A stretch of 64,000 nt of DNA, taken from assembly GCA_037444125.1 (NCBI GenBank), contig JBBINA010000003.1:3167-67166 (forward strand). The letters are read 5' to 3'. The DNA is from a bacterium (GTDB taxonomy: Bacteria; Patescibacteriota; Minisyncoccia; JBBINA01). The position numbers and the translations under genes were made by a program. The notes below the pieces were generated by a model. That model searched no databases, was not told where the DNA came from, and saw nothing but the letters and a program-made list of their open reading frames with translations. Below, piece after piece: positions 14,776-63,513 of the stretch (position 1 is its first letter; each line of letters starts with the position of its first letter).

Positions 14776-14798
14776 TAATTTTAGGCTAAAATAATATT

Positions 14799-15206: not shown

Positions 15207-15217
15207 CAAAAACTATA

Positions 15218-15769: not shown

Positions 15770-15788
15770 AAATAATATAAAAATAAAA

Positions 15789-15826
15789 AGAGAGGGTAAG
15801 GGTTTCGCACCTCTCTTTTTATTTTT
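15789..15826 (+). terminator. Rho-independent terminator after pilin paralog 4
   Basis: Hairpin AGAGAGG...CCTCTCT (7-bp stem) followed by TTTTTATTTTTT. Confidence 0.55.
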
Positions 15827-15860
15827 TATAAAATTATAAAAAATAATCTCACTAAATAGC

Positions 15861-15888
15861 TTGAAAACAGAAAATTAAAAAATATAAT
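15861..15888 (+). promoter_or_regulatory. Sigma-70-like promoter TTGAAA-N16-TATAAT ending 6 nt before the start codon of paralog 5 (a leaderless mRNA is predicted)
   Basis: -35 at 15861-15866 and -10 at 15883-15888, with the ATG at 15895. There is no room for a Shine-Dalgarno. Confidence 0.4.
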
Positions 15889-15894
15889 TAAATT

Positions 15895-21416: not shown

Positions 21417-21426
21417 ATAATATTAC

Positions 21427-22155: not shown

Positions 22156-23503
22156 AGTTGTAAAAATATTTTTCCTTTATAGTTTTAAGAAGTTTAAAAA
22201 TTAATATGGCTGGCAAAATTATATAAAAAACAGTAAAACCTACAGAATTAAACATTGGATAGGCAATGAGGGCGGTTATAGTAAGTAGAAACAGCTCATC
22301 GCTCTTTTGCAAAAAAATCAAAAAGGGAACAAGCCATAGAGAATCCCATTGCCTAACATTAATCTGAAATAAAATTATAAACATAACTAACGCAAGCAAT
22401 CCCTTCATCAAGAATGTCTTTTTGCTGTTTATTAGATTTATAAGATAACCAATAAAAAACAATGGTCTAAAAATAAAACGCGACAAGTAAGAAACTATAA
22501 AAAATAAAGTTAGTCTATCCTTAATTGTCTCTACAAATGGTATATAGAATATATTAGCGTAAGGCAATAAAAATATTTGGGATTGGAGAAATAAGCTTTT
22601 AAATGTTGTCCTTCCTGCCCAAATATCTTTATAGGCGAAGTAAACAATTAAAAACCCCAGTAACAAATTAACCAACAAAAATTGTATCTTACGCGCTAAG
22701 GTTTTTATTTTTTTAACAAGCTCGACCAAAGCAATTGGCACTAATAAAAAATATACATACTTAACTAGCCCTGAAACTATCAACAAAGGTATTACCAAAT
22801 ATCTTTTCCGATAAACAAAAAAGTAAATTCCCAAAATACCAAAAAATATCATCAGGTAATCGTTATGGGCATTATTAATAAATTCAATTAATATCCAAGG
22901 ATTAAATGCATATAGATAAGTTGCTTGAATCTCGCAGCCGGGCGCCAACTTTTTAACAACTAAATAAACTAACACTACGCTCAAGGTATTTATTAAGAAA
23001 GCGAACATTTTAAACACTATCATTGTGTATTGCGGAAATGAAGCAGACGATTTAGTCAGAAAATGCCCCACCCAGTACCACACTGGCCCATAATGATTCT
23101 CTTGGTTCCTCCACTCGCTCTGCTTAGTAAACATATCATCTGGATATTGAAATGGTGCAACTTTATAAGAATTTTCGTGGTATATCGAGCTTAACCTGCC
23201 CAAAGCAATAACTCTATAAACATCATTGGAAAAAAAAGGCGGTATAAAAACTAAAATTAAAGAGACCAGACAATAAGTCATTGCCAGCTTTGTTTTGTTT
23301 TTTTTAAGAAACTCGGCTCTGTAATAATAAACAATATAGATTACGACAATAAAAATTACAATTGCTAATAACTGCCAAACCCTAAAGTTATCATCAAAAA
23401 TATATACAGGCACCTTTAAACTTACGCGTGAATAACCAAAGTAGTAAAAACCGAGCATAAAGCAAAAACCAATATAAGATAAAACAAAAACAAACAATAG
23501 CAT
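22142..23503 (-). CDS. polytopic membrane protein, putative GT-C-like glycosyltransferase
   Basis: 453 aa with many TM helices. It sits inside the glycosylation island. Confidence 0.35.
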   Translation of the reverse strand: MLLFVFVLSYIGFCFMLGFYYFGYSRVSLKVPVYIFDDNFRVWQLLAIVIFIVVIYIVYYYRAEFLKKNKTKLAMTYCLVSLILVFIPPFFSNDVYRVIALGRLSSIYHENSYKVAPFQYPDDMFTKQSEWRNQENHYGPVWYWVGHFLTKSSASFPQYTMIVFKMFAFLINTLSVVLVYLVVKKLAPGCEIQATYLYAFNPWILIEFINNAHNDYLMIFFGILGIYFFVYRKRYLVIPLLIVSGLVKYVYFLLVPIALVELVKKIKTLARKIQFLLVNLLLGFLIVYFAYKDIWAGRTTFKSLFLQSQIFLLPYANIFYIPFVETIKDRLTLFFIVSYLSRFIFRPLFFIGYLINLINSKKTFLMKGLLALVMFIILFQINVRQWDSLWLVPFLIFLQKSDELFLLTITALIAYPMFNSVGFTVFYIILPAILIFKLLKTIKEKYFYNYVQQ

Positions 23504-23575
23504 ATTAATTATTCCAAGATCTTAAAACTTAAAATAATAAATAAACAAAAACATTTTTAAAAACAACTTATAAAA

Positions 23576-25319
23576 CTAATCTGTCCGTAATATTTTTCTA
23601 AACTCGTCTTCGTAAACAACCGGGAACTGCTCTTCAAAGAAGAAACGAACCATCTCTGGGAAAACAAGTTCTTTACAAAAAAATCTGTCATGCACATCGA
23701 GCTTGTAGATAATAACAAATTTAATCTTATATTTAATAAGAAATTCTTTTAACTCGTCAATTGACGGCGCATCAGTTCCTGGATTTGTCTGACAAGAAAA
23801 GAAAGGCCTCACATTATCTTCAAATAAATAGTTTATAAATTTTCTACTTTGATATACACGGATATTTATTAATCCTCCGATCAGCTTTCTTCCGTGAAGA
23901 GTCTGGTCATAAAGATGCAGACCTGACATAACTGGTCCCAACGGTAAATTCATAACAGCAAAGTCGCTGGTATCTTTTTGCCATTGATAAAAAATAGGTG
24001 GAACCCTAATGTCAAATCTGCCATAAGGATATATTGCTCTTTCAAAAATCAAACCAGCAAGTAATAAAACAACACTAACCCATCTAAATTTTATTTTTGA
24101 AAATGCTAAAGATAGAATGATCGCAAGAATTAAAACCGGAAAAATTGCGAATCTAGTCGCAAAACGCAACTGATTAAAGGGGGGAATATACATAAGTATA
24201 GCCATAAGGTAAGATAACTTTTTTCTCCATACCGAGTGACGCTCCTAAAACCGCTTCGTCTTCGGTCGGCTCAAACATATATAGAATAGGTCCTAAGGAT
24301 AAAACTAAAAAAACGGCACCAATAATTATGAGTTTCTTATATTTTACCGCCGCCTCATAACCCAACTTAAAGATTCTCGCCCGCCACAAAAACAGAAAAA
24401 TAAATCCCAACTCAATATAACCAAAAAAAACACTTGCGCCTTCTGTAGAGGCATAGTGACCTATAATTGGTATCTGTTTTAAAAACTTGCTCAGCCACTC
24501 CATATTCATCTCCATGTTCATATTCCTAGGGCTAACAAAGGAAAAAACGCGCGCGGCACCTGATGTTTGTTCCCAAAAAGAAAAACGAGGAACAAATAGC
24601 TCATAACCAAAAAAGAAGAACATAAACACCAAAACGCCACCATAGATACCTAAAGCCACTTTTAAAAGCTGCCGACTACCAAATACCAAACTAAACACAA
24701 AAAGTAGCAAGATGCTATAAAAAAAATAAATATAGGATGATAGAACCGCCAATAAAAGTCCACTTAAGATTTTTACCAGACTCCAGATGTTTGGCTTTTC
24801 TTTATACTGAAAACAAAACATTAGTATCAAAGGTAAGCTGAAACCGGCCAAAAGATTCAAATATTTATCACCGCGGGAAATAAAATAAGGGGAAAATGCG
24901 TAAATTGCGCTACCAATAAACGAGGCCAAGGGTTTATGATGGAAATATCTTCGCAATACATAGAAAAGCGTCGTGCCGTTTAAAGCAAAAAATAGCAGAA
25001 TAACAATATTGTTTATAAAAATACCGTTAGTAAAACTTCCAAATAAATAATAAATAATAATATATAGATAACTATCTATCGAGGTTGTCATGTCAACACC
25101 CCTGGGATACCATAAAAGATCAGTAGTCAACCTAAAATTACCGTCAACAACGCCCTTCATAAACCAACCCACCCAAGTCATTCCTAAAGCATCACGTAAT
25201 GAATTTGATGTATTAAAATTAAAGTAAGGTGTCGCTATCGGCGTGCCAAGTGCTAAATAAAATAAAAACGCCCAGATGATTTCTATATTTTTTATTATTT
25301 TATCTTTAATTTCGAACAT
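23576..25319 (-). pseudogene. Frameshifted paralog of the 597-aa membrane protein at 27626-29419 (two ORFs, 24174-25319 and 23576-24205)
   Basis: The upstream ORF ends ...VILPYGYTYVYSPL* and the downstream ORF begins MAILMYIPPF.. in a different frame. The intact paralog reads ..VPLPYFLIMYLPPF.. across the same point. The C-terminal halves also align (YDQTLHGRKLIGG vs YDQTIHNKRIVGG). This implies a 1-nt indel near 24200-24207. A G6 run lies at 24179-24184. Confidence 0.6.
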
Positions 25320-25474
25320 TATAATAAATTTGCTTTTGAAGCGTAATATCTTTTCAACCTTGAGTGGTGCTCTTAAAGGTAGATGTAGATAATCTTAAGG
25401 TTTTTAGCATATAAATTGTCGAAATCGCCAATAATTAAAAATTCTTATCAACAGAGATTCCGGCATAAACAATA

Positions 25475-26104
25475 CTATTTCAGTAAAAACTTAGGAATAT
25501 TATATAACTTACAGGTTGGGACGGCTCTGAATATCAAATCATAATCTGAGGCAAAACTTAAAGATTCATTATAACCATTCAGCTTGAAATAAATATCTCT
25601 CCTGTAACACCTAACAGGATCGGCAATTGGACTAACACGAAAAATGTACTTCCTTATCGCCTCATCTGTAACAGGATAATAACGTTTGCCTAAATCTTTT
25701 CCTCTGTCATTTATGATAACAAGATATGACCCACACACACCATAGGTTGGATTTTTTTCTAAAAAATCAACTTGCTCCTTTAGACGATCCGGTTCAGCAA
25801 TATCATCACTGTCCATAATAGCTACATATTTGCCCCTTGCGAACTTTCGTATAGCATAATTACGATTTCTAAATAAACCCTGTTTTTTTTCATTATCTAT
25901 AACTATAATCCTCGAATCTTTCATCTTATAATGATTTATGATTGTCATTGTATCATCTGTAGAGCAATCATTTATTATAATAAATTCGAAATTCGTAAAA
26001 GTTTGACCTAATATACTTTCTATTGCAACACCAATATATCGCTCCGAATTATAAGCCGACATTACCACAGATACTTTCGGTTTGGCATTATTTTGCATTC
26101 CCAT
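25475..26104 (-). CDS. GT2-family glycosyltransferase
   Basis: 209 aa: VSVVMSAYNSERYI...IINDCSTDDT...AIMDSDDIAEPDRL (DxD, GT-A fold). Confidence 0.65.
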   Translation of the reverse strand: MGMQNNAKPKVSVVMSAYNSERYIGVAIESILGQTFTNFEFIIINDCSTDDTMTIINHYKMKDSRIIVIDNEKKQGLFRNRNYAIRKFARGKYVAIMDSDDIAEPDRLKEQVDFLEKNPTYGVCGSYLVIINDRGKDLGKRYYPVTDEAIRKYIFRVSPIADPVRCYRRDIYFKLNGYNESLSFASDYDLIFRAVPTCKLYNIPKFLLK

Positions 26105-26121
26105 ATTTATGTTTATCTTAT

Positions 26122-27666
26122 TTACTGTAACATATTTTCATCAATACTTTCTCTTTTTAAAATAACTCCAGCTGAATTTTTTGAAAAAACCCTAAACTCG
26201 TTTGAAATGATTATCTTATCCAAACTACGTTCAAGCCATGGCTTATCCTTTTCAAGATACAAAATATACTCAACATCACTAAATACCGGCAACTGAGCAA
26301 GATGTTGCCTTTTAAACAAATGGGGCAACGAATAAACATAGGCAGCAACTGAGACATCCTGTGGAATACGGCTAATTAAGTTTATTGTTTCGTTTCTACG
26401 ATAATCAGTAAATCGTTCGTGCCACCGCTGATATGATGCCACGGGCATATAATATATAAAATTAAAAAAAACGACTGCAATTAAGCTGTATATAAACCCA
26501 AAGGTAACAATATTAACCCTAGTAAATTTACTAATCAAGAAGTTTTTGGCGGCTAAAATACTAATTATCCCCAAAGGCAAATAGGAAAGATTGTAATGAA
26601 ACCATGCAAGATGGCTATAATAAAAAATGTTACTAACCAACAACCTTTCTGCAATCGGTAAGACAAACAGCAAAATCCCGGGGGTAAAAACAGCCGGCAT
26701 AAAAGTGCCGACATTAAAAAAAATATTAGCATATTTCAAGGCATTAAAACCATTTAAGCATATAAATGATGATAACTTGCCTTGAAGAAATCTTTCCCAA
26801 GATTCTTTATAAAATGAAAAGTAAAAATAACTATCCTGTAAAAAATGAGGTATAACTATTTTAATAACTGTTATAAAGACAATGATACTGATAAAAACCG
26901 TAGCTAAGCCATGTTTTAAAAAAGTTCGTCTATCATAAATAATCAAAAATAAACCAAAAGCTGATAGATGAAGAATAAAATTCTCCTTTATCGTCATAAC
27001 TAAAATTGCCACGAGCCAATAAAATAACCACTTGCGGGTTATAGCAAAATAAAAAAGACTTAAGAGTAAAAAGGGATAAAAACTGTCCTGGGTAAAATCA
27101 TAAAGAGCAGCTGATTGTAAACCAGGATATAAAATATAAGTTAAACCAATCAATAGGGTATAAAATGATTGAATCTTAAGATGTCGAGCAATATAGTAAA
27201 GTGGAATAACGCCTAACAAAAGCAGCGTCACCTGGCCATAAATCAATGTTTCTGCCTCGGGCCAAAGCTTGAAAAAAGGTATGAATATCCAAATAATTGG
27301 ATTGAAGTGATTACCAAACTCATTTATAAGAACTTTGTTTCCGCTATCAATGGTTATTATAGGACTTCCCGTAGTTACCAAGTTCCATAATAAGTTCAGG
27401 GTATTAGCCAAATCTTGGGTGCTGAAAAAATTATAGTGACGATGTAGCGCAAGCGATGAATAATAAAAAAATAAGCAAATAACTAATATCGAAAGTATTA
27501 TCTTGGTTAAATGATAGCTTAGGTATTGTCCGGTCATATCAGAAAGTTTCTTGATAAATCCCTTTCTATGGGAATAAACGCTCAGAACACCACTTATTGA
27601 CAAGATTAAAATAATTTTAAACAAATCAGTCATAATGTTTTGGTAAGTTTCCGACTGAATACACAC
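26122..27666 (-). CDS. polytopic membrane protein, putative GT-C-like glycosyltransferase
   Basis: 514 aa with more than 10 TM helices. It overlaps the next gene by 41 nt. Confidence 0.35.
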   Translation of the reverse strand: MCIQSETYQNIMTDLFKIILILSISGVLSVYSHRKGFIKKLSDMTGQYLSYHLTKIILSILVICLFFYYSSLALHRHYNFFSTQDLANTLNLLWNLVTTGSPIITIDSGNKVLINEFGNHFNPIIWIFIPFFKLWPEAETLIYGQVTLLLLGVIPLYYIARHLKIQSFYTLLIGLTYILYPGLQSAALYDFTQDSFYPFLLLSLFYFAITRKWLFYWLVAILVMTIKENFILHLSAFGLFLIIYDRRTFLKHGLATVFISIIVFITVIKIVIPHFLQDSYFYFSFYKESWERFLQGKLSSFICLNGFNALKYANIFFNVGTFMPAVFTPGILLFVLPIAERLLVSNIFYYSHLAWFHYNLSYLPLGIISILAAKNFLISKFTRVNIVTFGFIYSLIAVVFFNFIYYMPVASYQRWHERFTDYRRNETINLISRIPQDVSVAAYVYSLPHLFKRQHLAQLPVFSDVEYILYLEKDKPWLERSLDKIIISNEFRVFSKNSAGVILKRESIDENMLQ

Positions 27667-29419
27667 TTATTAATCTATCCTCGTAAATTAACGGGTATCC
27701 ATCGATAAGCTTGGAAAAATTCTTAGCGACTGCATAGCAAAAATCGTCCTTTTTTTCTCCCAATTCTAATAAAGTTTCTGTATATACTACTATATATTTG
27801 CTCCTTGATTTACTCAGAAATGCTTCAAATTTTTTTTTGTCTTCGACGTCTATAGAAAACACGGCATTATCTCCTTGATTAAAAGTACAACTTAATTTTC
27901 TCAAGAAAGAATTTTCTGGCGCATTATAAAAATTATTGAACTCTGATGACCTAATTATCAAACTATGTAGGGCCCCGCCTACAATTCGTTTATTATGAAT
28001 TGTTTGATCATAATTAGCCAGAGTATTTAATATTGAATCAGTAGGAATAATAAATAAAGAATAATCACTACGATCGTTTTTGATATCATTAAAAAACTTA
28101 GGTCGCTCTATATTTTCTAAATTATAAGGAAGGGTTAAACGCTCAATTAAAAAAGAAGCACAAATTATTGCAAAAAAAAGAGGCCGTGAGGTTAATTTTT
28201 TTTCTTTCATAAAAAAAGACACAATAACCGCTACAGCAAGCAGGGAAAAAATAATAAACCGGTTTGGTGTTCTTAAAAAAATAAAAGGGGGAAGATACAT
28301 TATCAAAAAATATGGCAAAGGGACAATTAGTTTCCCAAAAGGAGAAACAGGAGCTTGAAAAAACTTCAGAATTGGCCCCATTGAAAAAATAAGAAAACTC
28401 AAAAAAATAAGATACCATAATTTTACCTTTTTCAAAAATTCCTTGATGAACAAACCGACTACCAGTATAGCCACCTCCGGTATGCCAAGATACACATCCT
28501 TCTCGGGCAAAGTAACAATGTATTTAGTATAAAACCCAGACAACAATTTTCCCAAGCTCGTAACAGGAGGTAGAATAAACAAAAAAGGGAAATCAGTCGC
28601 ATAACTAAAATTGCTAACCAATGAATAACCCAGATCATAAAACGATAACATGCCACCATTAGAATCAACAAGTAAGGAGGAAATGATAAGCATTAAAGGC
28701 ATCATCAATAATAAGGTGAACAAAAAAACAGCCAAGTACACTTTTATATACGAACTAAACGAACGGTCAACGGTGATATGATATATAATCACTTCTACGA
28801 TTGAAAATGTGATAATAAAGATAAAATATGTTGAACTTGCTAAAAAATTAAGAAAAATAGCTAGGCTAAATAAAATCGCATAATATAGTCGCTTATTCTT
28901 TTGTAGTTTTAATAAAAATAAGATTGCCAAAGGTATAAACTCAGCAGACATAATATTAAGATGTGTAACGCCACGAGATAACATAAATGTGCTAAAACCA
29001 AAAAGAAAACCACCTACTAAAGAAGCAGTAGTATGATTCGTCAAATACTTGATCAATAGAAAACTAAAAAAAGCAGTTAAAACAAATGCTAGCAAAACTT
29101 CTATGTTATAAGCGATATGTTGAGGAAAAAATTGAGCCAATATAAATGAAAGCCCGATATTAAAATAAGAATCGGTAGTTTGAGTTATATTTACAACAAA
29201 TGGGCTCCACAGATAATCATTAAAAAATGGGTTTTTATTTAACTCAAAAATAGAATACTTAAACCACCAATTTTGCCAAATAAATAAAAAGGGATCAGAA
29301 ATAAACGATTCCGCTGGAATTGAGGAAGTAAATCTAATTATTAAAGGAAAAGTAAAAATAATAGCACAAAAAAAATAAATCATTAGAACTATTAGATTTT
29401 CTTTTATCGATTCTCGCAT
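27626..29419 (-). CDS. polytopic membrane protein with a C-terminal extracytoplasmic domain (intact paralog of the frameshifted gene)
   Basis: 597 aa. N-terminal TM bundle plus a roughly 180-aa soluble C-terminal domain (..ANYDQTIHNKRIVGGALHSL..). Confidence 0.4.
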   Translation of the reverse strand: MRESIKENLIVLMIYFFCAIIFTFPLIIRFTSSIPAESFISDPFLFIWQNWWFKYSIFELNKNPFFNDYLWSPFVVNITQTTDSYFNIGLSFILAQFFPQHIAYNIEVLLAFVLTAFFSFLLIKYLTNHTTASLVGGFLFGFSTFMLSRGVTHLNIMSAEFIPLAILFLLKLQKNKRLYYAILFSLAIFLNFLASSTYFIFIITFSIVEVIIYHITVDRSFSSYIKVYLAVFLFTLLLMMPLMLIISSLLVDSNGGMLSFYDLGYSLVSNFSYATDFPFLFILPPVTSLGKLLSGFYTKYIVTLPEKDVYLGIPEVAILVVGLFIKEFLKKVKLWYLIFLSFLIFSMGPILKFFQAPVSPFGKLIVPLPYFLIMYLPPFIFLRTPNRFIIFSLLAVAVIVSFFMKEKKLTSRPLFFAIICASFLIERLTLPYNLENIERPKFFNDIKNDRSDYSLFIIPTDSILNTLANYDQTIHNKRIVGGALHSLIIRSSEFNNFYNAPENSFLRKLSCTFNQGDNAVFSIDVEDKKKFEAFLSKSRSKYIVVYTETLLELGEKKDDFCYAVAKNFSKLIDGYPLIYEDRLISVYSVGNLPKHYD

Positions 29420-29627
29420 GTTAGCTGAATAAACTTTAATTTAAGTTTATTTTTTCACCTGGGTTTGTTTAATATTCTGACAAGATAAAAAAATGATACC
29501 AGTAGCCTATAATATAATCTGAAGAATTTTATATCTCTTGTCTGAAACTTGGTAACACATAATAAAAATTTAAATGGAGTATTATGCACTAAAACAATCA
29601 TCTCTAAACTACTAAAGTTTTAAAGGA

Positions 29628-30593
29628 TTATTTCCTATCGAAATTTATCCTCCGTTTCACTATAAACAATGGCCTATCACTTACCTCACTATGAATATTG
29701 GCAATATAAAGGGATACTATACCAATAGAAAACAACATTATTCCAGTTAAGAAAAGATTGAAAATAGCTAAAATCGCCGTTCCAGAAAAATGAAAACCAA
29801 ACGGGTCGTTAATAATATATTTATTTAAAAATATGAATAAACCTAATAGTCCTGAAAATATCGTAACAACTACGCCAAGATAACCGACTAACCTTAAAGG
29901 AAAAAGGCTATGAGTTGTAAAGCTAACTAAAGCCAGGCTAACTAATTTCCCATAAGAATATTCACCTAATCCATGTTTTCTCTCATTAACCCGAAATATC
30001 ACATAGGCTTTTTTAAAACCCAACCAATCTATTAATCCGCGCGCAATGCGGTTTCTTTCTGTAAACCGATTAAATTCTTTTATAATTTTTCGGTCAATAA
30101 GCCGAAAGTCTGTCTCGCCGGAAACGATCTCGGTCTCGCTAATAATCTGCATAATTTTATAAAAAATCAAGGAACTTATTCTTCTAATAAAATTTGTTTT
30201 GCCAACATTTTTTTTGATGCCAATCACAATATCAAATCCTTCCTTCCATTTCTTCAGAAATTCAGAAATAAGTTCTGGCGGGTGCTGAAGGTCACCATCC
30301 ATTATTACGGCCGCGTCGCCTGAGGAATAAAAAATTCCAGCTGAAATAGCAATCTCCTTACCAAAATTTCTGGACAAACCAACGCATTTTACTCTCTCGT
30401 CTTTTTCAGCTATTTTCTTAATTACCTTATAGCTACCATCATTACTTCCATCATCTATAAAAATAATTTCAAAATTGTACTTTTCTTTTAAAGACAAAAA
30501 AACTTTTTTGAGTTTTTCATATAGTAATTCAATATTGTCTTCCTCGTTATAAACTGGGATGATAATTGAAATTAGTTTTTTGCGCATGTACAA
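29628..30593 (-). CDS. GT2-family polyprenyl-phosphate glycosyltransferase with C-terminal TM helices (GtrB/ArnC-like)
   Basis: 321 aa: ISIIIPVYNEEDNI...IFIDDGSNDGS...VIMDGDLQHPPELI, plus two C-terminal TM helices as in bactoprenol glucosyl/ArnC transferases. Confidence 0.7.
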   Translation of the reverse strand: MYMRKKLISIIIPVYNEEDNIELLYEKLKKVFLSLKEKYNFEIIFIDDGSNDGSYKVIKKIAEKDERVKCVGLSRNFGKEIAISAGIFYSSGDAAVIMDGDLQHPPELISEFLKKWKEGFDIVIGIKKNVGKTNFIRRISSLIFYKIMQIISETEIVSGETDFRLIDRKIIKEFNRFTERNRIARGLIDWLGFKKAYVIFRVNERKHGLGEYSYGKLVSLALVSFTTHSLFPLRLVGYLGVVVTIFSGLLGLFIFLNKYIINDPFGFHFSGTAILAIFNLFLTGIMLFSIGIVSLYIANIHSEVSDRPLFIVKRRINFDRK

Positions 30594-30681
30594 ACCACTA
30601 AGAAAAAGCCTTCTCTCTGAAGATAAATTATATATGAACGCATATTAAGAAATCAAATGTTATAAAAAAGCAGGTGATTTC

Positions 30682-32034
30682 TCACCTGCTCTTAGGAACG
30701 AATTCTGTGCGGGAAACGCCGTTAACGGCGAATTCATCGATCCAGAGTTTATTCGAGTTAACTTTGAGACATCCTGCGAAAGCAAATCGTGGGAAACAAG
30801 CTCCGCCTGGACAAAGCCCACGAATTCTTGTTGGGATTATAAGTTCATTCTCTTTAGAAAGCTGTACAATATAAGGATGGTTAAACTGACTTGTCTCGCC
30901 TCGGCCGATTTTCAACCAGATGCGCGGCGGATCCTCTTGATTAATGGTACAGCCGCCGGCAAAAGTTATTCTGACCTTATCGCCGGGCGAGAATCTAACA
31001 TCAATTTGCTTAATTTTCTCACCAAAATCATATCTTAACCAAGACATCTCGGGAGTAAACTCTCTATCAGGAGGGGGCGCGTCTCCGGGAACTGTAACAA
31101 CACTTTGTGCCCCCTGTAATTCCAGATAGAAATCAGTTATTCCCTGTGCCGCTTTTCCCAACCTGAAAGAACTAATCGCCGGCCAGACAAAATAAACAAA
31201 TCCACCAATGATACCCAAAATCAGCAACAGTCTAAACGCCTTATAGCTACTTTTTTCAAATGGTATTGCAATGCCAAAAATTAACAAGAGAAGTGTCCCA
31301 AGAATCATAAAAAAGAATTGAGGCTTATTTTCGGCGTACTTGACGACTGTCTCCAAAAAATCCTTTACACCGCTAAATCCTTGTTCCTGAACAATAAAGT
31401 AGCCTATAATAACGACACCGGCTGTTATAATCGCCAGCGTAAGAAATTTAAAAACTGATTTTTCCTCGCGTAGCAATACCAAAACCAAAACGCCAAAACC
31501 CAGAACAACTCCAAGTAAGATCCATTCTGAGGAAAGCTTGCTAAAAGGCTCTATCTGACGTAAATAGTAAAATCCTGCGCCAAGTAGCCCCAAAAATAAA
31601 ATCAGTATGGGAATGCCAAAAACTAATTCGGCAAAAGATCCACCTCTTCTAAACAAAAACCAAAACCCAGCTAACACAAGAATAACTATACCCGTAGCAA
31701 GAAGCTCTACTGGTCCGATATCCTGGGTAAATTTAGCGCTTTCGTTAATAATAAAACCAAGAATAGCGCTAAAGTTTAAGATGGCTATTATTAACCCTAC
31801 TAAGCTCAGGATAGTCAGAAATGTCTTTCCAACTGACCAAGTGCCAAAGTCAAGGATTGGACCCTTAAACTCTGGTTTAAACTCGCCCTTTTTAATAGTC
31901 ACTGTCTTGTCTAAAAACTTTTTTGCCGCAACAATGACTAAAGTTAAAACTACTAACCAAAAACCTGCGAAACCTAAAACATAAGGCACAAGAAATAACG
32001 CCACTAGGCCGATAACGATCCATCCAATATTCAT
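30682..32034 (-). CDS. polytopic membrane protein with a C-terminal Cys-containing beta-rich domain, hypothetical
   Basis: 450 aa. Its stop overlaps the downstream SPFH gene by 4 nt, so the two form an operon. Confidence 0.35.
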   Translation of the reverse strand: MNIGWIVIGLVALFLVPYVLGFAGFWLVVLTLVIVAAKKFLDKTVTIKKGEFKPEFKGPILDFGTWSVGKTFLTILSLVGLIIAILNFSAILGFIINESAKFTQDIGPVELLATGIVILVLAGFWFLFRRGGSFAELVFGIPILILFLGLLGAGFYYLRQIEPFSKLSSEWILLGVVLGFGVLVLVLLREEKSVFKFLTLAIITAGVVIIGYFIVQEQGFSGVKDFLETVVKYAENKPQFFFMILGTLLLLIFGIAIPFEKSSYKAFRLLLILGIIGGFVYFVWPAISSFRLGKAAQGITDFYLELQGAQSVVTVPGDAPPPDREFTPEMSWLRYDFGEKIKQIDVRFSPGDKVRITFAGGCTINQEDPPRIWLKIGRGETSQFNHPYIVQLSKENELIIPTRIRGLCPGGACFPRFAFAGCLKVNSNKLWIDEFAVNGVSRTEFVPKSR

Positions 32035-37487: not shown

Positions 37488-39077
37488 ATGGCTGAACAAA
37501 TAACAATAATCGGGGCAACTGACTTTCGCGGCCAAAAAATAAAGTTCGGTATAAAAAAAGATGACCGTCGTCGCCATTTATATATTATTGGAAAAACTGG
37601 TATGGGTAAAACAACACTTCTTGAAAACCTGGCTATTCAAGATATACAAAATGGCAACGGTCTATGCGTGGTTGATCCGCACGGCGAATTCGCTGATAAA
37701 CTCCTTGATTATGTGCCAGCTAATCGCATAAAAGATGTCGTCTATTTTAATCCTTCAGACACTAATTACCCTATTGGCTTCAATGTTATGTCGACTGAGA
37801 ATCAAGAAGAGCGTTATCTTATCGCTTCGGGCTTAATGGGGGTTTTTAAAAAGATATGGCCTGATGTTTGGTCGCCACGAATGGAATATATTCTCAATAA
37901 TACTATTTTATCTTTATTGGAAATGCCCGGTATGACGCTATTAGGCATTAATAGAATGCTGGGCGAAACCGATTATCGAAAACAAATAATCCAACGTTTA
38001 AAAGATCCAGTGGTTAAAACCTTCTGGGTTAATGAATTTGCCAAATACTCGCCATCGTTCCAAACAGAAGCCGTAGCCGCTATCCAAAATAAGGCTGGAC
38101 AATTTATCACTAATCCTCTGGTGCGAAATATTGTCGGTCAAATGGAGAATAAAATTAACATGCGTGAAATAATGGACGGCCAAAAAATTTTAATTGTCAA
38201 TCTCTCTAAGGGAAAAATTGGCGAAGACAACTCCAGTCTTCTGGGCGGTATGATTATTACAAAACTACAACTAGCTGCTATGTCGCGAGTCGATACTCCA
38301 GAAAATCTGCGCAAAGACTTTTATTTATATGTCGATGAGTTCCAAAATTTCGCCACCGAGTCTTTTATTAATATTTTATCAGAAGCCCGAAAATACCGAC
38401 TTTGCCTAACATTAGCTCATCAATACATCGCCCAACTAACTGATAAGGGCGTCAATAAGAGTACAGGCGTGAGGGATGCTATTTTCGGCAATGTCGGCAC
38501 AATTATTTCCTTCAGGGTAGGAGGCGAAGATGCAGAGTTTTTAGAAAAAGAGTTCTTTCCCGAATTCACCAAATTAGATTTTGTAAATCTGCCAAAATAT
38601 AAAATTTATCTAAGGCTTATGATAGACGGTGTGGTTTCTAGACCATTTTCAGCTGAAACTTTGCCCCCTCTTCCCAAACCAACCAAAACTTACCGCAAAG
38701 AAATTATTGACTTTAGCCGCAAAACCTATGGAGTCGCCCGAGAAACCGTTGATGTATTTGTGGCTGAATGGATGAGTATAGAAAAACTAGATGATGAAAA
38801 AATAGAAAGAGCTTTTAAACAGCATGTTACCAAATTATATGATGCTGTCTGCGCTAATTGCCAGAAAAAAACCAAACTCATTTTTGAACCTCGTCCAAAT
38901 GAACCAGTTTTTTGCCGCAAGTGTTATAAAAATAAAGCCGAATCTAGTACCCGCAAGCCAACACAGCAAGCTAGAAAAAAACCTATACCAAAAACCACAG
39001 AAGAAGATCAATCTAAAACTCTTAAAAATCTTTTGTTAGAAGCTATTAAAATGAAAGGCGAAAAACCTAAACAATAA
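37488..39077 (+). CDS. FtsK/HerA-superfamily P-loop ATPase with a C-terminal zinc ribbon (VirD4/TraD-coupling-protein-like or HerA-like)
   Basis: 529 aa. Walker A IIGKTGMGKTT, a HerA-type VVDPHGEF motif, Walker B LYVDEFQNF, and a C-terminal CANCQ...CRKC zinc ribbon. No TM segment. Confidence 0.55.
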   Translation: MAEQITIIGATDFRGQKIKFGIKKDDRRRHLYIIGKTGMGKTTLLENLAIQDIQNGNGLCVVDPHGEFADKLLDYVPANRIKDVVYFNPSDTNYPIGFNVMSTENQEERYLIASGLMGVFKKIWPDVWSPRMEYILNNTILSLLEMPGMTLLGINRMLGETDYRKQIIQRLKDPVVKTFWVNEFAKYSPSFQTEAVAAIQNKAGQFITNPLVRNIVGQMENKINMREIMDGQKILIVNLSKGKIGEDNSSLLGGMIITKLQLAAMSRVDTPENLRKDFYLYVDEFQNFATESFINILSEARKYRLCLTLAHQYIAQLTDKGVNKSTGVRDAIFGNVGTIISFRVGGEDAEFLEKEFFPEFTKLDFVNLPKYKIYLRLMIDGVVSRPFSAETLPPLPKPTKTYRKEIIDFSRKTYGVARETVDVFVAEWMSIEKLDDEKIERAFKQHVTKLYDAVCANCQKKTKLIFEPRPNEPVFCRKCYKNKAESSTRKPTQQARKKPIPKTTEEDQSKTLKNLLLEAIKMKGEKPKQ

Positions 39078-45177: not shown

Positions 45178-46551
45178 CTAATTTTGTCTCTCCAAAATAT
45201 CAATTTCTTTTTGGTAATAATCGGTCAGGTCCATAATAGAATCGCCATAAAAATAGTAACGCGGTTGGTTCCAACGTGATCCAGCAAAATACATCTGAAC
45301 CGCTTTCCATTCGCTTTTCTTATTACCAAAAACGGCTCCAAGATCTTTTAATTTTAACGCCGCACCTATAATAGCATCGCCAAAATTAAACGGTGAAGGC
45401 GGATTACGACCTACAATTTCGGCAATCCTATTTTTATAAGCAAGCCAGGTGCTTGGCAAAAATTGCGCTGGTCCCAAAGCACCGCCACAGCCGTAATCAG
45501 GCGCCTTAGAAACCTGAATAATATTAGCATCAAGTTTTAACTCCTGCATAATAGTAAAAAGGGCTTCTTTCTCTTGTTGGGCTTTGCTAATCTTGCCCAA
45601 AGACATATAACAATCATACAAATCAGTTTTCCAATTACCTTTACCAATATTAGCCCCCCATTCTGACTCTTTTTTCAACAAAGCTAATAAAAAAGCCGCC
45701 CTAACACCAGTTTTTTCTTCAGCATATTTAGCGTTTTTATAGGCATCGGCAAATGACATTTTTACGCCTAAACCTTCTAACACATATAACTGCTGTTTTA
45801 TTCTCTCAATATCGTCTTTGGTTATCTCGATAGTATTTTCATAAGACTTTTGTGCCTCTCGTATCTCGAAAAGAATACGTTCTTTGTTGCTTTTTTTTAA
45901 AGCCAATTCTCTTTTCTGAACAACAACCAATGCTTTTAATTCATTCATCTCTTCTTTGCGTTCCCTTAACTCCGCAATTTTTTGTTCTTTTTGAGCTTTA
46001 AGTTCCTTTAAATGAGCAACACGGGCATTAATTCTCTCCTGTATAGATTCTAAATGTTGCATGTTGCTAAAAACGCCAGAAAGGGTGGCGTTCAAAAAAA
46101 ACAGGCGAAAAACAGAAAAATTACTTTTAATTTCGTTTAAATCCCTTAAAAGCTGACTAATAATTTTCTTCTCCAAAAGCATGTTTTTCGTCAAATTCTC
46201 AATATCAATCTCGCTTTCAAAAATGCTATTTTTAGCCACTTCTATTTCGTAATTAAGCCTCTCTATCTCTAGATTCAATCTGTTAATTGAAAAATCTATG
46301 TTCTTGAGATCGTTAATTGTCGACTTCTCTCTTGATTTTTCTTCTTCAATTCTTTGGCGTAAATTATTTATTTCCTGTTCCAAATACTGAATCTTTTCAC
46401 GATAATACTTTTTCAGTTCTTCCTTATCTAAAGCATCTTGGGCTCTTGCAATATGACCAAAAGTAATAAAAAAAAATAAGCCAATAAGAAAAAAATTATA
46501 AATAGTTTTTTTGAAAAAATAGTTCACCTTACTTTTTTGTTGGTCATTTCT
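45178..46551 (-). CDS. secreted coiled-coil protein with a C-terminal lytic-transglycosylase-like domain (MltB/SLT family-3-like)
   Basis: The probable start is the internal Met (MRNDQQ..), followed by a signal/TM and about 250 aa of coiled coil. The C-terminal domain carries GCGGALGPAQFLPSTW, matching the GxxGxxQF(M/L)PSTW motif of MltB-type transglycosylases. The listed ORF has a 5' extension overlapping rplY. Confidence 0.5.
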   Translation of the reverse strand, partial: RNDQQKSKVNYFFKKTIYNFFLIGLFFFITFGHIARAQDALDKEELKKYYREKIQYLEQEINNLRQRIEEEKSREKSTINDLKNIDFSINRLNLEIERLNYEIEVAKNSIFESEIDIENLTKNMLLEKKIISQLLRDLNEIKSNFSVFRLFFLNATLSGVFSNMQHLESIQERINARVAHLKELKAQKEQKIAELRERKEEMNELKALVVVQKRELALKKSNKERILFEIREAQKSYENTIEITKDDIERIKQQLYVLEGLGVKMSFADAYKNAKYAEEKTGVRAAFLLALLKKESEWGANIGKGNWKTDLYDCYMSLGKISKAQQEKEALFTIMQELKLDANIIQVSKAPDYGCGGALGPAQFLPSTWLAYKNRIAEIVGRNPPSPFNFGDAIIGAALKLKDLGAVFGNKKSEWKAVQMYFAGSRWNQPRYYFYGDSIMDLTDYYQKEIDILERQN

Positions 46552-47224
46552 CATCTGTTTTTCTGTCTTTAGACACAGAATCGCTACCCTGCACAGTCTC
46601 TTTTGAAGCAAATTCTCCTTGACCCGAAACGGATGCCACATTTTCTGCAGAAATTTCTTCAGCGGCCCGACGCATAAAAGCAAAAACTATAACTTCATCT
46701 AAACCTTCTTTAATTTCTAAATCCTTTAAAACAGGCACATCTTTAACTTTAATTTGGTCACCTATTTTCTTCAAAGCTGAAATATCAATAGTTATTTCTT
46801 TGGGCAATTTGTCCGCTAAACCACTAACAGTCAGTTCCTTATGATTTTTAATCAAAATTCCACCTTGAGATTCGGCTTCGCTTTTACCCACAAACACCAA
46901 AGGAACTTTAACAGTTATCTTGTGAGACGGTATTTGATATAAGTCTATATGAAGCACATGGTCTGTAACTGGATGTACCTGAACATCTTTAAATAACACT
47001 CGATATTTTTGAGTTTCCTGATTTTCGCCAGACAGTTCAAAATCAATCACCATAGTCTTGCCCGACTCTCCATAGATTTTTTTAAGGTCTTTAGCTTTAA
47101 CAGAAAAAGGCAATGGAGACAATTTTTCTCCGTATAAAATCCCAGGCACAAAACCCGCTTGTCTCAATTTTGCAATTTTTTTTCCAAAAACTGAACGTCT
47201 TTCACCTTTTAAAGTTATAGTCAT
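46544..47224 (-). CDS. rplY: 50S ribosomal protein L25 / general stress protein Ctc
   Basis: 226 aa with the L25 N-terminal beta-barrel (RQAGFVPGILYG) and a Ctc-type C-terminal domain. Confidence 0.75.
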   Translation of the reverse strand: MTITLKGERRSVFGKKIAKLRQAGFVPGILYGEKLSPLPFSVKAKDLKKIYGESGKTMVIDFELSGENQETQKYRVLFKDVQVHPVTDHVLHIDLYQIPSHKITVKVPLVFVGKSEAESQGGILIKNHKELTVSGLADKLPKEITIDISALKKIGDQIKVKDVPVLKDLEIKEGLDEVIVFAFMRRAAEEISAENVASVSGQGEFASKETVQGSDSVSKDRKTDEK

Positions 47225-59696: not shown

Positions 59697-59861
59697 TATA
59701 GTATATTAACTTGTAAAAAGATTTTAAAAACTTTGATAATAAAAGTCAAATAAAACCATTTATCGCTCTTAACTGTCGTAATAGTTAAATTCAAGCTCAT
59801 TAACTGTATAAATCTAATCAAATTTAAAACCGCGTTTATAAAAAACAGCTTCATTCTAAAT

Positions 59862-61205
59862 CCATTTTTTCTGCTTACCCATGACTTCAAAAAATTTATA
59901 ATCGCCTAATCTTTGAATAAGACTTGAAGTAGCATGCATATCAATTATATCCTCGGTCAATTCATAAACTAATGCCTCTTTCAAATGAACGTATAGTGGC
60001 AACACCTCTTGGGCAACCGGTCTTTTATATTTTCCTTTAATTATATAAATTAAATTGCTGTTTTTGATTTTATAAGAGTGCCGTCTCCAAAATCTGTAAC
60101 GGGGTATTTTAGCTCTAAAGATATTCTTTTCCCTTGAATTGTTTTGCTTTCATCAAAATTATCTTGTCCAAACAAAGACAAACCAATAACTAAATTGGCA
60201 GCTCCACTTGAATCAATAATAATGCTTTCTCTTTCGCTCACTCGACGGTATTCTGTTTCAAAAAATCCGTTAACTAATTTTTTTCGAATAACCATACTCA
60301 AAAATGTTTCCTTATTAAAGGGCCCATCTCCCTTTAAACTAAATTTAGCTACATTCTGGGGATTAAATATTTCCACAAAATAAATTTGCGTATCTTTCAG
60401 GACATAATCTAATTTAAAAGTCGTCTTGGAACTATTTAAAGTAATATAATTATTTACCCAAATACGCCACTAATATAAAGCTCATTTATAAATTCTATAA
60501 AAATCCTGCTTAAATCAAGACTTGAACCTGAAAATAATAAAGTTTTATTAAACAATTCTTCGCCTGTTGCCTGAATAATAAAAAGTTTTTTAAGAAAATC
60601 AACGCCATATCTTCGTGCTAAGAAATCTTTAAATAAATTCACACTACCATAATCCACGCGCTCGTTTCGCCACTCGCGCAATGAATCATTTTTTACATAA
60701 ATAGTATTTATAGTAATCAATATAACAAAAATAACTAGCTAACCACTCTGCTCTAAGCTCATTGAGCCAAACATCATCAACTTTTTGAATTTTTTTTCTT
60801 TTAAATGAAATGAAATAAAGTGCCCTAATTCATGGACAAAAATTTATACAAGTCCCTAGGCTAAAATAAAAATTCAGTATTGAGATTAATATTATCGGGC
60901 GTACTATAATTAAAATAGCCGCCGGCCCGTTGTTTTATTGAACTTAAGGCAATATTAGCTTTTGGAATGTCTGTCTCTAAAAAACTTCTAAGTCGCGGCA
61001 AAATATTATTTTCATAGGTAGAGGCCAAGCCATTTATAACAATAATGGTACCCTGACGCGTCTGCGGTACAAGGACGTTATAATATGCTTCATCTATATA
61101 AAAATTAATCAATTCCCCCTGAAAAACTAAAGAAGCATTTATCTTCTCTCAAAAGCATCATAGGTGGGGTCAACTACAAAAATTTGCTTACTTTCCTGAG
61201 CCATA
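59862..61205 (-). pseudogene. Remnants of a degraded gene of unknown identity (at least four collinear ORF fragments in different frames)
   Basis: On the minus strand, consecutive short ORFs run 61205-61140 (MAQESKQIFVVDPTYDAFERR*), 61112-60861, 60720-60454, 60376-60050 and 60050-59862 (..LPLYVHLKEALVYELTEDIIDMHATSSLIQRLGDYKFFEVMGKQKKWI*). They abut each other with frame changes. No intact ORF longer than 110 aa exists in a 1.35-kb region flanked by intact genes. Confidence 0.3.
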
Positions 61206-61278
61206 ACAATACCATCAGATACAAAAAAATGAATCCCAAAACTGCAAAAATTTTAATTACTAAATGTCGCATATCAAC

Positions 61279-63042
61279 CTAGCGAAAATACTTTAAAAAC
61301 TTAATCAAAATCGTTCGACGGTAAATAAAAAAGTAGCTTATGATGCTCGAACTAATTAAAACAAGAATGATTACCGCAACGCCGCCGTAGTTAAAACCAG
61401 GATTTGACTTTAAAAGATTGGCTATATCTTGATTGTATGTTGATGCCAATAAGCTTCCATCCTCTAGTCGAGAAGCTAAAGCTTTTTTTATAAAGCTAAT
61501 ATCGTCAAGATCTAACGCTCCAGGCGCTTGAGCAATATATTGGGTTTTATTTTTAGTTAAACATTGCGTCTGACTAGGTTCCTTTAAGGTATTAAAACTA
61601 AAGTTCGCTACGAGGTTAAGATTTTTTATTTCCGAGGTAGTAGCTATATTGCTAACCTTACTTATGACAGGCTGCTTTTGTAAAGAAAATTTGTCATTTT
61701 TAAAATAGATGATGTTAGTTGCTGCAGGCGTTGGAATTTGGGAGAAAAAATACTTGTCGTTTTTGCGGGCAACCGCAAAACCTTCTTTTAAGCCCTGATA
61801 GTTGACTTCTTGCAGTAAAAATCTTTCTGGCGTCAGTAGTCTAACAACACCATTGTCGTTTTTTAGATTCAAACGCGTATTAGCGTTTTGCAAGACTAAA
61901 AATGAATCTTCAAATAATAATGTACCTTCCGGAATAACAAATTTATCACTAGCTGTTTCCAAAATATAACCTGAAATATCAACCGGAAAATCATTACTAT
62001 TATAAAGCTCTATCCACTCGTTGTTTTGGTCCCTACCGATAGGATTAGGCATAAGCTCATTAATAAAAATGTTTTTGGGATAAACATTAACTATTGATGA
62101 AACTCTCAATTCATTAACTGAATCTTTAACTGACAAGGTTAAAGTATAACGGCCTGGATAAAGGTAAAAATGTACAGCTTTAGCGTCTTTAGAGATGACA
62201 CCATCGCCAAAATTCCAATTAAAAGTAAGGGTTTCGTTTTCTGGATCTTGAATTAAAGAATTGTCTAGATTAAGTTTTTCGCCAACTAGCAAATAAATGC
62301 TGTCTGGCAAATTAATTATTGGCGGCTTGTTTAAGTTTGCACTTAAAGCGCTATTTTGACTTTTCTCCGAAGCAACATTATTAGGCAAACTGCCTGTAGC
62401 GCTCGTTGTGGAAGTTAGGGTTTCCGGTGTTAAATTCGGCTGCTTTATAAAAGGAGCGCGTTTGGGCGTGCCGAGTATTAACCCATCTTTGGAATCAAGG
62501 CCGTTGCTATTTATACCGCTATGTGTTATCCAATTATTAAAGTCGCTTCCTTGACCCAAAAGATTAATGCGTTCCATAGATTTGTAATCTGGACCGGTCG
62601 TACCGGCAGGCCAACCTGAACTAAAATTAACTTCGTCAACAATCTGACCAGAGGAATTCTTTATCACTAAATATTCACCGTTATTACTTAGACCATTGCC
62701 GCCAAAAGAACCAACTAAATCTGCATTAATATCTGAAATCACTTTATCGTCTGTCCTTTCTATAAGATAAAAACTTTGGGGCAAAATCTCTCCTTTAAGC
62801 GCCAAAACTAAAGTTTCGCCACCTTTTTCGTATAAACCCCAACCATCAAGATTAATAACCGCATCAGTTGTATTAAAAAGCTCTAGCCATTCATCGTTTG
62901 TTGAAGCTTTGGTACCAGACCAGGCAATCTCAGAAATAACCACCGATAGGTTTTGATCAGCTAAAACACTCCTCTGTCCAAAAGAAAAGAATAAAGCCAA
63001 TGTAAAAAAATTTACCATTAAAAATCTGAATAATGAGAACAT
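61279..63042 (-). CDS. surface-anchored protein with lamin-tail domain, PKD domain and a second lamin-tail domain (LTD-PKD-LTD), C-terminal TM anchor
   Basis: 587 aa. Signal peptide. LTD1 is VVISEIAWSG...NDEWLELFNTTDAVINLDGWGL...FYLI. The PKD-like part is NWNFGDGVISKDAKAVHFYLYPGRYTLTLSVKD. LTD2 is IFINELMPNP...NEWIELYNSNDFPVDISGYIL. The C-terminal TM is GGVAVIILVLISSSIISYFFIY. Confidence 0.6.
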   Translation of the reverse strand: MFSLFRFLMVNFFTLALFFSFGQRSVLADQNLSVVISEIAWSGTKASTNDEWLELFNTTDAVINLDGWGLYEKGGETLVLALKGEILPQSFYLIERTDDKVISDINADLVGSFGGNGLSNNGEYLVIKNSSGQIVDEVNFSSGWPAGTTGPDYKSMERINLLGQGSDFNNWITHSGINSNGLDSKDGLILGTPKRAPFIKQPNLTPETLTSTTSATGSLPNNVASEKSQNSALSANLNKPPIINLPDSIYLLVGEKLNLDNSLIQDPENETLTFNWNFGDGVISKDAKAVHFYLYPGRYTLTLSVKDSVNELRVSSIVNVYPKNIFINELMPNPIGRDQNNEWIELYNSNDFPVDISGYILETASDKFVIPEGTLLFEDSFLVLQNANTRLNLKNDNGVVRLLTPERFLLQEVNYQGLKEGFAVARKNDKYFFSQIPTPAATNIIYFKNDKFSLQKQPVISKVSNIATTSEIKNLNLVANFSFNTLKEPSQTQCLTKNKTQYIAQAPGALDLDDISFIKKALASRLEDGSLLASTYNQDIANLLKSNPGFNYGGVAVIILVLISSSIISYFFIYRRTILIKFLKYFR

Positions 63043-63184
63043 ACTTAATTAAACGATTTATATTATTTTAATAAGTTTATCTCAAACAATTTATAATAAA
63101 GAAATTATTTTGTCTATCTTGATAAAAATTTTAAACAACTTATAATAAAAGGTGTTCTTTGCAAATATATTCATCAAGAGGTGA

Positions 63185-63469
63185 TTGAGGTTTATGTACC
63201 CCGCAACAACGAAACGACCCTACACTATTAAAGCGATACTTGAAAGAAAACCCGAAATCAAAGCTTTATTTTGGCTAGATAATACAATTCATGTCGAGGA
63301 GCATCTTGACGCATTCTCTCTCGAGGATGCCGAACTTAAATTCCGCAAACTTGTTCTAAAAAAGTTCCCGCAATATTATATTAAAGAAATATCTGAAATA
63401 TTTGCTCATCATATATTTAAATCAAGTACCTTTATAAAAATGGTTTGGCGAATGCCTCGACTCTTTTAA
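63185..63469 (+). CDS. hypothetical protein
   Basis: 94-aa ORF followed by a terminator. No motif was recognised. Confidence 0.3.
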   Translation: MRFMYPATTKRPYTIKAILERKPEIKALFWLDNTIHVEEHLDAFSLEDAELKFRKLVLKKFPQYYIKEISEIFAHHIFKSSTFIKMVWRMPRLF

Positions 63470-63481: not shown

Positions 63482-63513
63482 AAAAACGCGCCCGTAATCT
63501 TACGGGCGTTTTT
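63482..63513. terminator. Bidirectional rho-independent terminator between convergent genes
   Basis: An A-run, then the hairpin GCGCCCGTA...TACGGGCGT, then TTTTT. Confidence 0.5.

Follow-up and report, generated by a model that had tools for sequence, protein, structure and literature searches.

A membrane-anchored lamin-tail protein from a Minisyncoccia genome as a possible surface DNA receptor

Introduction

Unable to make nucleotides of their own, Patescibacteria are believed to depend on DNA that they import. What receives that DNA at their surface is an open question, since most of their genomes encode ComEC but no recognisable ComEA; among genomes of the candidate phyla radiation (CPR), ComEC occurs in 86% and ComEA in only 31% (PMC6744442). 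The question arises again at a gene located at 61279..63042 (-) in a 64,000-nucleotide stretch of contig JBBINA010000003.1 (assembly GCA_037444125.1; Patescibacteriota, Minisyncoccia), a stretch that we call the window. The gene encodes a predicted surface protein in which two lamin-tail domains (LTDs) flank a PKD domain. In itself it is an ordinary annotated "LTD-containing protein", and it is the family-level pattern that bears on the CPR question: in relatives, the outermost LTD is exchanged with a ComEA-type helix-hairpin-helix (HhH) cassette at one position, beside genes for a PilB-like ATPase and Ruv proteins, which provides a concrete and testable lead.

Our tentative reading, to which we give somewhat less than an even chance, is that the head of the window protein captures extracellular DNA at the cell surface. 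A sequence-only reading of the window had named the protein as a candidate receptor for DNA or host surfaces. These are two distinct claims, and our data favour DNA only moderately, with the head exchange and gene slot in relatives speaking for it and the absence of such neighbours from the window speaking against it. That the LTD-headed family, with its LTD exchangeable for an HhH cassette, serves as the alternative DNA-binding mechanism of the roughly two-thirds of CPR/Patescibacteria genomes that have ComEC without recognisable ComEA is a larger claim, and a doubtful one. What is new is a ComEA-type, membrane-tethered surface receptor with a lamin-tail head, the functional part of this description being hypothetical. 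Since 2004, prokaryotic LTDs have been recognised solely by their frequent association with extracellular phosphoesterases; DNA capture, if true, would be their first defined function.

Domain architecture and predicted topology

The interval holds exactly one intact open reading frame (ORF), on the minus strand, which the sequence-only reading had not specified, with an ATG start and 587 residues under translation table 11; neither an alternative genetic code nor a frameshifted LTD gene needed to be considered, since the frame is intact under that table. Pfam matched the LTD family (PF00932) in two stretches with 85.8 bits against a cutoff of 34.3 (E=3.2e-24), so that the protein passes the gathering threshold of the family's hidden Markov model (HMM). 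The best stretch, residues 323-415, lies in the membrane-proximal domain (LTD2), and the other is the N-terminal domain (LTD1). Between them, PKD_4 (PF18911) matched residues 238-309 with 51.5 bits against 27 (E=1.1e-13) and PKD (PF00801) matched with 30.8 bits against 23.5 (E=3e-7). These domain matches are far beyond chance.

The structural evidence agrees. An AlphaFold2 model built on 46 homologues shows the lamin-tail-like immunoglobulin (Ig) beta-sandwich fold, and the central stretch combines the PKD fold with the family's HMM score and its WxFGDG signature. In sequence this stretch matched solved PKD domains of the collagenases ColG/ColH in the PDB (E=6.5e-7), and in fold it matched 4jgu, 4tn9 and 4aqo from the same enzymes with TM-scores, normalised to the target, of 0.71-0.80 (Foldseek). 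Across 46 sequences no variation occurs at PKD residues N277, F278, G279 and D280, and hardly any at W276. Predicted local distance difference test (pLDDT) values exceed 90 in LTD1 (~30-196), PKD (~239-321) and LTD2 (~322-436) and fall below 50 in parts of the connecting segments (200-233 and 450-513); modelled alone, LTD1 reached a pLDDT of 94 and a pTM of 0.90. Apart from the PKD domain, a Foldseek search of the PDB with the whole model yielded nothing beyond generic tandem-Ig matches (TM-scores 0.1-0.2) and was uninformative.

Read from the N-terminus, all on the minus strand, the protein begins with a signal peptide (residues 1-28; 62959..63042) consisting of an n-region MFSLFR, a hydrophobic core and a c-region VLA|D; the sequence points to VLA28|D29 as the likely cleavage site. 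LTD1 (62455..62955), recognised by Pfam, NCBIfam and the model, would form a membrane-distal head and carries the motifs SEIAWSGT...NDEWLELFN...LDGWGL. A linker rich in serine, threonine and asparagine (~197-238; 62329..62454), disordered by its pLDDT and poorly conserved, leads to the PKD domain (62080..62328; WNFGDG...H.Y.YPG.Y), which is followed by LTD2 (61735..62079; NELMPNP...NEWIELYN...ISGYIL). The stalk (~437-553; 61384..61734) is mostly disordered, has two short predicted helices within 515-545 and matches no Pfam family. It ends in a transmembrane helix (~554-576) with a putative cytoplasmic tail, YRRTILIKFLKYFR (together 61282..61383).

Hydropathy gave only two peaks, residues 1-19 and 555-573 (the latter with a value of 2.64), and the model places helices at 2-27 and 554-586. 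Since the tail after the transmembrane segment is basic, with five lysines or arginines, the positive-inside rule places the three beta domains outside the cell. The sequence-only reading had described a signal peptide, two LTDs flanking a PKD-like domain and a C-terminal transmembrane anchor, had quoted motifs that we recover in LTD1, PKD and LTD2, and had taken the domains to face outward; Pfam, hydropathy, the basic tail and the model agree with it on all of these points. No C-terminal sorting model in NCBIfam matched the window protein at E<=1, and it contains no LPXTG motif. A PGF-CTERM or GlyGly-CTERM signal was considered and rejected as chance resemblance: the "PGF" and "GG" that precede the transmembrane segment are absent from its two closest relatives, P0002 and P0003 (P numbers denote homologous proteins and L numbers loci).

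Exchange of the head domain on a shared scaffold

The evidence that carries the DNA-receptor reading comes from relatives in which the head differs and the remainder does not. In P0066 residues 28-86, after the signal peptide, form a ComEA-type HHH_3 domain (E=3e-17), and PKD, LTD, stalk and transmembrane helix follow; over the part that begins with PKD and runs to the C-terminus, P0066 and the LTD-headed P0015 share 66% identity. A closer pair, the HhH-headed P0121 and the LTD-headed P0126, is 81% identical over 350 residues and matches at 15 of the first 18 signal-peptide residues, the only difference being the head cassette between signal peptide and linker. Clustered at 90% identity, the proteins that combine HHH_3, PKD and LTD fall into at least 27 groups, and the contigs that carry them are as long as 317 kb; JGI names one group "competence ComEA-like helix-hairpin-helix protein". 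The extracellular HhH head and domain II of RuvA are members of one fold superfamily, which raises the question of the cassette's origin.

Both parts of the window protein connect to these relatives. Its PKD and LTD2 are 37% identical over 264 residues to the HhH-headed protein of L086, and its LTD1 is 61% identical over 163 residues to the head of P0009, with a C-terminal extension common to both. P0009 is encoded within a conserved gene cluster (in L090), as is P0011, the best full-length homologue of the window protein outside its own clade (32% identity over 98%).

That cluster was found at more than 20 of the relatives' loci, with the fixed order PilB-like T2SSE ATPase, RuvB, X, YebC and RuvC, where X is the LTD- or HhH-headed protein; its genes lie co-directionally on one strand and their stop and start codons often overlap. 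X is HhH-headed in L086/87, L008, L068 and L015/L093/L094/L103 (L008, L015 and L068 come from species-representative genomes, L093, L094 and L103 from JGI metagenomes). It is LTD-headed in L088/89, in L090 and L091 from further assemblies, in L029, L034, L038, L043, L059, L066 and L072 from species-representative genomes, and in L095, L097, L098, L100, L101, L102, L104, L105 and L108/109 from JGI metagenomes, where X genes carry several LTD subtypes in the one slot. The synteny extends further in L086 (HhH) and L088 (LTD), which share the order TsaE ... T2SSE, RuvB, X, YebC, RuvC and continue alike with 7TM_transglut, ATP-grasp, ATP-grasp ... PBP, DnaN and DnaA. In its minimal form X consists only of a signal peptide, an LTD and a transmembrane segment (213-263 residues), and in L092 a double T2SSE ATPase is closely followed by an LTD-PKD-LTD gene.

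The head swap and positional orthology with a ComEA-type head support the DNA-receptor reading, as do the 61% identity of the window LTD1 to a cluster head and the position of P0011 in the cluster. Further support comes from domain fusions. LTD heads of the window type are fused to PLD-like phosphodiesterases (L010, L017, L051, L084, P0083) and to OB folds (L011, P0026, P0031), and published work links LTDs with extracellular nucleases or ComEC-like metallo-beta-lactamase proteins (PMC6085458, PMC5118699, PMC8289736). The disparity between ComEC and ComEA in CPR genomes points the same way, as do the match of LTD1 to the N-terminus of the nuclease ExeM, the use of LTD and duplicate HhH as alternative add-ons reported for secreted DNases (PMC4486849), and the high conservation of the head relative to the other modules.

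Three further observations concern these loci. In L086, L088, L090 and L091 the surface-protein gene splits ruvB from yebC-ruvC, and no ruvA was called within 8-10 kb. In one lineage a small gene for a membrane-anchored, Kazal-type protease-inhibitor-like protein lies between ruvB and the LTD-headed gene (L088:9524-9937 (-), L089:1357-1770 (-)). Blind clustering of the neighbourhoods of 85 loci revealed no universal partner; its largest clusters (15 and 11 loci) were spurious antisense or high-GC ORFs, and its useful signal consisted of two lineage-specific contexts.

Proposed mechanism and comparison with ComEA

According to the DNA-receptor reading, the protein would leave the cytoplasm through the Sec pathway and, as a type-I membrane protein, stay anchored in the cytoplasmic membrane by its one C-terminal helix. 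Three acidic beta-sandwich domains, LTD1, PKD and LTD2, would extend outward on flexible linkers, with PKD, LTD2 and stalk acting as a spacer through the cell wall and the conserved LTD1 presented at the membrane-distal tip. LTD1 would bind extracellular DNA and feed it to a type IV pilus and ComEC uptake machinery, so that a lamin-tail domain in place of a helix-hairpin-helix would do the work of ComEA. The window copy, at its own locus, would presumably do the same job as the cluster copies.

ComEA (HHH_3, PF12836) is accordingly the nearest functional comparison. Like ComEA, the window protein is non-enzymatic, extracytoplasmic and membrane-tethered, as its signal peptide, C-terminal transmembrane helix and basic tail indicate, and its relatives carry the ComEA-type head on the same scaffold and in the same slot as LTD-headed versions. 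Unlike ComEA, it has no HhH motif and carries LTD and PKD modules that canonical ComEA lacks. Its anchor is also at the opposite end: Gram-positive ComEA has an N-terminal anchor helix, and the window protein a C-terminal one. No tandem HhH (HHH_3) and no HhH family at E<=1 appeared in a Pfam scan of the window protein, and a genomic link to DNA-uptake or recombination genes exists for cluster homologues, but none was found for the window gene within the 64 kb. Because the defining HhH domain is absent, the window protein is not a member of the ComEA family.

Conservation across the family

A search of a 5.8-billion-protein collection gave 125 matches, and related loci were scanned with a 10-sequence alignment. 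The closest relatives, P0002 and P0003, are 63% and 54% identical to the window protein and all others at most ~35% over full length; within species-representative genomes the best match was 33% identical. The few named matches came from Patescibacteria (Azambacteria, Nealsonbacteria, Uhrbacteria) and were called "lamin tail domain-containing protein" or "PKD repeat protein", and further searches added homologues from Portnoybacteria and Lloydbacteria. The sequence-only reading had taken the source for an organism that probably scavenges nucleotides and DNA from a host, which was reasonable in light of these Patescibacteria/CPR names (Azambacteria, Portnoybacteria, Nealsonbacteria, Lloydbacteria); the homologues mark the source as an ultrasmall bacterium of Patescibacteria/Parcubacteria-like kind.

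The layout is shared by at least 45 aligned homologues. In most matches of 440-600 residues a hydrophobic N-terminus leads directly to an LTD motif (VVINEIAWMGT...NEWIELYN), followed by PKD and a second LTD, and the protein ends in a non-conserved stalk, a C-terminal transmembrane helix and then lysines or arginines. Mean pairwise identity in the 46-sequence alignment is 43.6% in LTD1, 32.3% in PKD and 25.5% in LTD2 and drops to 13-16% in the linkers (linker 1 15.6%, stalk 12.9%). As the module of highest identity, LTD1 suggests that the membrane-distal head is under the strongest constraint; its conservation reaches 40-60% identity across Patescibacteria and Chloroflexota. Its invariant residues are E38, W41, G43, E51, W52, E54, W68, R96, W144 and W171.

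These patterns bear on a second explanation, in which the protein is a structural component of the envelope: an acidic, possibly Ca2+-binding, anchored spacer that tethers the wall or a surface layer and has no specific soluble ligand. We consider this quite unlikely. It would suit the acidity of every folded domain in every family member, the Ca2+ bound by collagenase PKD domains (4aqo), and the position of the gene next to a putative large surface protein. The S-layer proteins Sap, SbsB and SbsC are among the whole-model Foldseek matches, although these are the same generic tandem-Ig matches of low TM-score described above. The transmembrane segment, too, is strongly conserved in cluster-type proteins, which suggests intramembrane contacts. 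However, a pure spacer would hardly be expected to conserve its most distal domain above all others, or to give that domain up in favour of a DNA-binding HhH module.

Two features of the C-terminal region stand out in other family members. The transmembrane helix of cluster-type proteins (L086-L109) is almost invariant, K[SA][NK]LIL..SIIISGSLL.SW, more so than simple anchoring would require; the helix may make a contact within the membrane or act as a sorting signal. P0055, P0060, P0069, P0075, P0079, P0084, P0087 and others have a conserved acidic motif in the cytoplasmic tail, EYAIIEDIIEG or [DE]Y.II[DE], which may point to a partner bound in the cytoplasm of those lineages; the motif is absent from the window protein.

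Local context of the window gene

Going downstream on the minus strand, a gene for a transmembrane tetratricopeptide-repeat (TPR) protein, cut by the window end, is followed by a 94-residue ORF on the opposite strand (63185-63469 (+)) and then by the LTD gene. Beyond it lie ~1.5 kb of broken frames and genes for the ribosome hibernation factor HPF (S30AE), SecA, PPDK and GAPDH. This order is kept in the two closest relatives. The 94-residue ORF is a real small gene without a Pfam family; it is 56% identical in L005, the locus of the closest relative, and was also called in L002/L003. A GC-rich hairpin of nine pairs with T-runs following on both strands (63488-63509) lies between the TPR gene and this convergent small ORF and probably terminates transcription in both directions. 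Upstream of the LTD gene, TAGACA and TAAATT separated by 17 nt (63088..63116 (-); 9/12 positions) form a weak sigma-70-like promoter candidate, and a mere candidate, since promoter-like matches in the region are no more frequent than in shuffled sequence.

The broken frames are what is left of a gene for a 508-residue secreted protein that carries HELGH, an HExxH-like motif: this pseudogene (59778..61249 (-)) was recovered by tblastn in six pieces that fall into three frames and contain in-frame stops. In L005 the gene is intact (3988-5514) and starts 6 nt past the LTD stop codon, so that the two are probably co-transcribed. This arrangement suggests a third explanation, that the LTD protein is a docking partner holding a secreted hydrolase at the surface, either the HELGH protein or an enzyme from another locus, such as a nuclease or phosphoesterase, as a split-gene equivalent of LTD-nuclease fusions like ExeM; the typical fusion of LTDs to hydrolases (PMC6085458) is consistent with it. 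We regard it as very improbable. The HELGH gene has decayed in the window and is absent from L002/L003 while the LTD gene is intact, so the LTD protein is retained without this partner, which is thus not obligatory. Apart from the decayed copy in the window, the two genes were seen side by side in L005 alone; just two distant HELGH matches turned up elsewhere (L070 and L081), and the HELGH protein has no Pfam or otherwise recognisable family. We accordingly rejected it as a conserved partner.

Further upstream in the window's relatives is a gene for a large secreted protein, whose L002 copy (1186 residues) has no Pfam match. Proteins of this kind (~1190-1220 residues; L002:112-3672, L003:5086-8646, L027, L055 and L067) always precede the transmembrane TPR and LTD genes, both in other Parcubacteria and in the lineage of the window, and are candidates for a major protein of the surface, perhaps one resembling S-layer proteins. 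The L002/L003 copies match the HELGH protein weakly (phmmer E=7e-7), and a short VY..V..G.KR-type module was seen by eye in both.

Evidence against DNA capture and the adhesin alternative

Several observations weigh against the DNA-receptor reading. To our knowledge, DNA binding has been shown for no prokaryotic LTD. The window gene lies outside the PilB-like/RuvB/YebC/RuvC cluster, following a transmembrane TPR gene and preceding HPF-SecA; at this different locus it may be a paralogue with a different ligand. By sequence it belongs to the same family as the cluster X proteins, and has either moved or is a paralogue; as an intact member at another locus, its own role stands one step further from the evidence. 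Searches of the 64 kb revealed no ComEA, RuvB, RuvC, YebC or PilB-like genes, translation in all six frames showed no ComEA-type motif, and no ComEC or nuclease was recognised there by reading N-termini and scanning 29 ORFs with Pfam. The nuclease, ComEC or ComEA genes that might have been expected nearby are thus missing within the window. Removal of the LTD from ExeM slowed the enzyme in vitro but left it nearly wild type in vivo (PMC6085458). LTD1 is also strongly acidic (net charge -11, isoelectric point (pI) 4.3), with pI values of 4.1-4.7 in all 46 sequences. The HhH heads of the same scaffold family are acidic as well (charge -3 to -8), so that acidity does not discriminate between the readings and loses force as an argument against DNA binding. 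Finally, LTDs are also fused to modules that do not act on nucleic acids (PAP2, beta-helix, dockerin), an Azambacteria homologue has an adhesin-like neighbourhood of SpaA/SdrD-like, FN3-like, LysM-DPBB and cupredoxin proteins, so that not every family member is tied to DNA genes, and the recent head swap could equally mean that each head has a different ligand.

The last three points lead to the main rival explanation, a surface adhesin or receptor whose ligand is not DNA but, for example, a glycan, a teichoic-acid-like polymer, a phospholipid head group or a protein, belonging either to the host cell or to the bacterium's own envelope. PKD, LTD2, stalk and transmembrane helix would then be a generic display scaffold on which swappable heads (LTD subtypes and HhH) differ in specificity, and the presence of several LTD subtypes in one slot is what diversifying heads would be expected to show. 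The Azambacteria context and the fusions, to which PLD can be added (PLD and PAP2 are both often lipid-acting), agree with this explanation, as do the surface proteins encoded near the window gene's relatives (the 1186-residue secreted protein in L002, the transmembrane TPR protein and the secreted HELGH protein in L005), a Laminin_G_3 lectin-like protein encoded just ahead of the L092 gene, and an early proposal that LTDs target proteins to membranes (Mans et al. 2004, as cited in PMC6085458). On the other hand, the sole head of known biochemistry on the scaffold is a ComEA-type DNA-binding domain, the operon partners of the relatives are DNA-uptake and recombination genes, and 40-60% identity of LTD1 across phyla is easier to reconcile with a ligand found everywhere, DNA for instance, than with host-specific structures. 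On balance, an adhesin with a non-DNA ligand seems rather unlikely, and DNA capture by the lamin-tail head is the reading that we prefer.

Other systems related to the window protein

The closest counterparts beyond ComEA are nucleases of the ExeM/Xds type (NF033680), in which the signal peptide is likewise followed directly by an LTD of the same subtype; window residues 33-200 align to ExeM positions 25-189 (NCBIfam, E=5.8e-6), and both proteins have a C-terminal hydrophobic anchor region (PMC6085458). Unlike ExeM, the window protein lacks the OB-fold (YhcR-like) region, the EEP nuclease and any other catalytic domain. Its whole-protein score against the full-length ExeM model is 24.6 bits against a cutoff of 1300, and Pfam found no nuclease domain in it. 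Since OB and EEP domains are missing, it is not an ExeM-type nuclease. Secreted DNases are reported to carry an LTD or a duplicate HhH as alternative add-ons (PMC4486849).

The haloarchaeal LTD lipoproteins Hvo_1477 (LTD and thermonuclease) and Hlac_1867 (ComA-like, with LTD and metallo-beta-lactamase) are also surface-tethered and associated with extracellular DNA handling (PMC5118699); by description they differ from the window protein in their nuclease or metallo-beta-lactamase domain, their lipobox anchor and their archaeal origin. The Ig-fold tail domain of nuclear lamins (PF00932; PDB 7dtg) is likewise among the closest known systems. For the PKD domain, the counterparts are those of clostridial ColG/ColH, with the same fold and the same WxFGDG...H.Y...G.Y signature. 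Unlike in the collagenases, the window PKD is a single internal module between two LTDs in a protein without a catalytic domain, and its position suggests a role as a spacer. Our literature search returned no paper on this LTD-PKD-LTD family, on its head swap or on DNA binding by bacterial LTDs.

Other features of the window

Elsewhere in the window, polytopic membrane proteins with 7-11 predicted transmembrane segments alternate with glycosyltransferase-like genes (16263-32034 (-)) in what is probably an envelope glycosylation cluster; the two polytopic proteins scanned (27626-29419 and 30682-32034) have no Pfam match. Six tandem small membrane proteins (12982-16257 (+)), a VirD4/TrwB-like coupling ATPase with a zinc finger (37488-39077 (+)) and an SLT lytic transglycosylase (45178-46683 (-)) are also encoded. 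Two of the six small proteins were scanned and both matched T4SS_pilin, the one of 124 residues also matching TrbC/VirB2 (E ~1e-12). Together with the coupling ATPase and the transglycosylase, the six small proteins look like parts of a type IV secretion or conjugation-like system of Patescibacteria.

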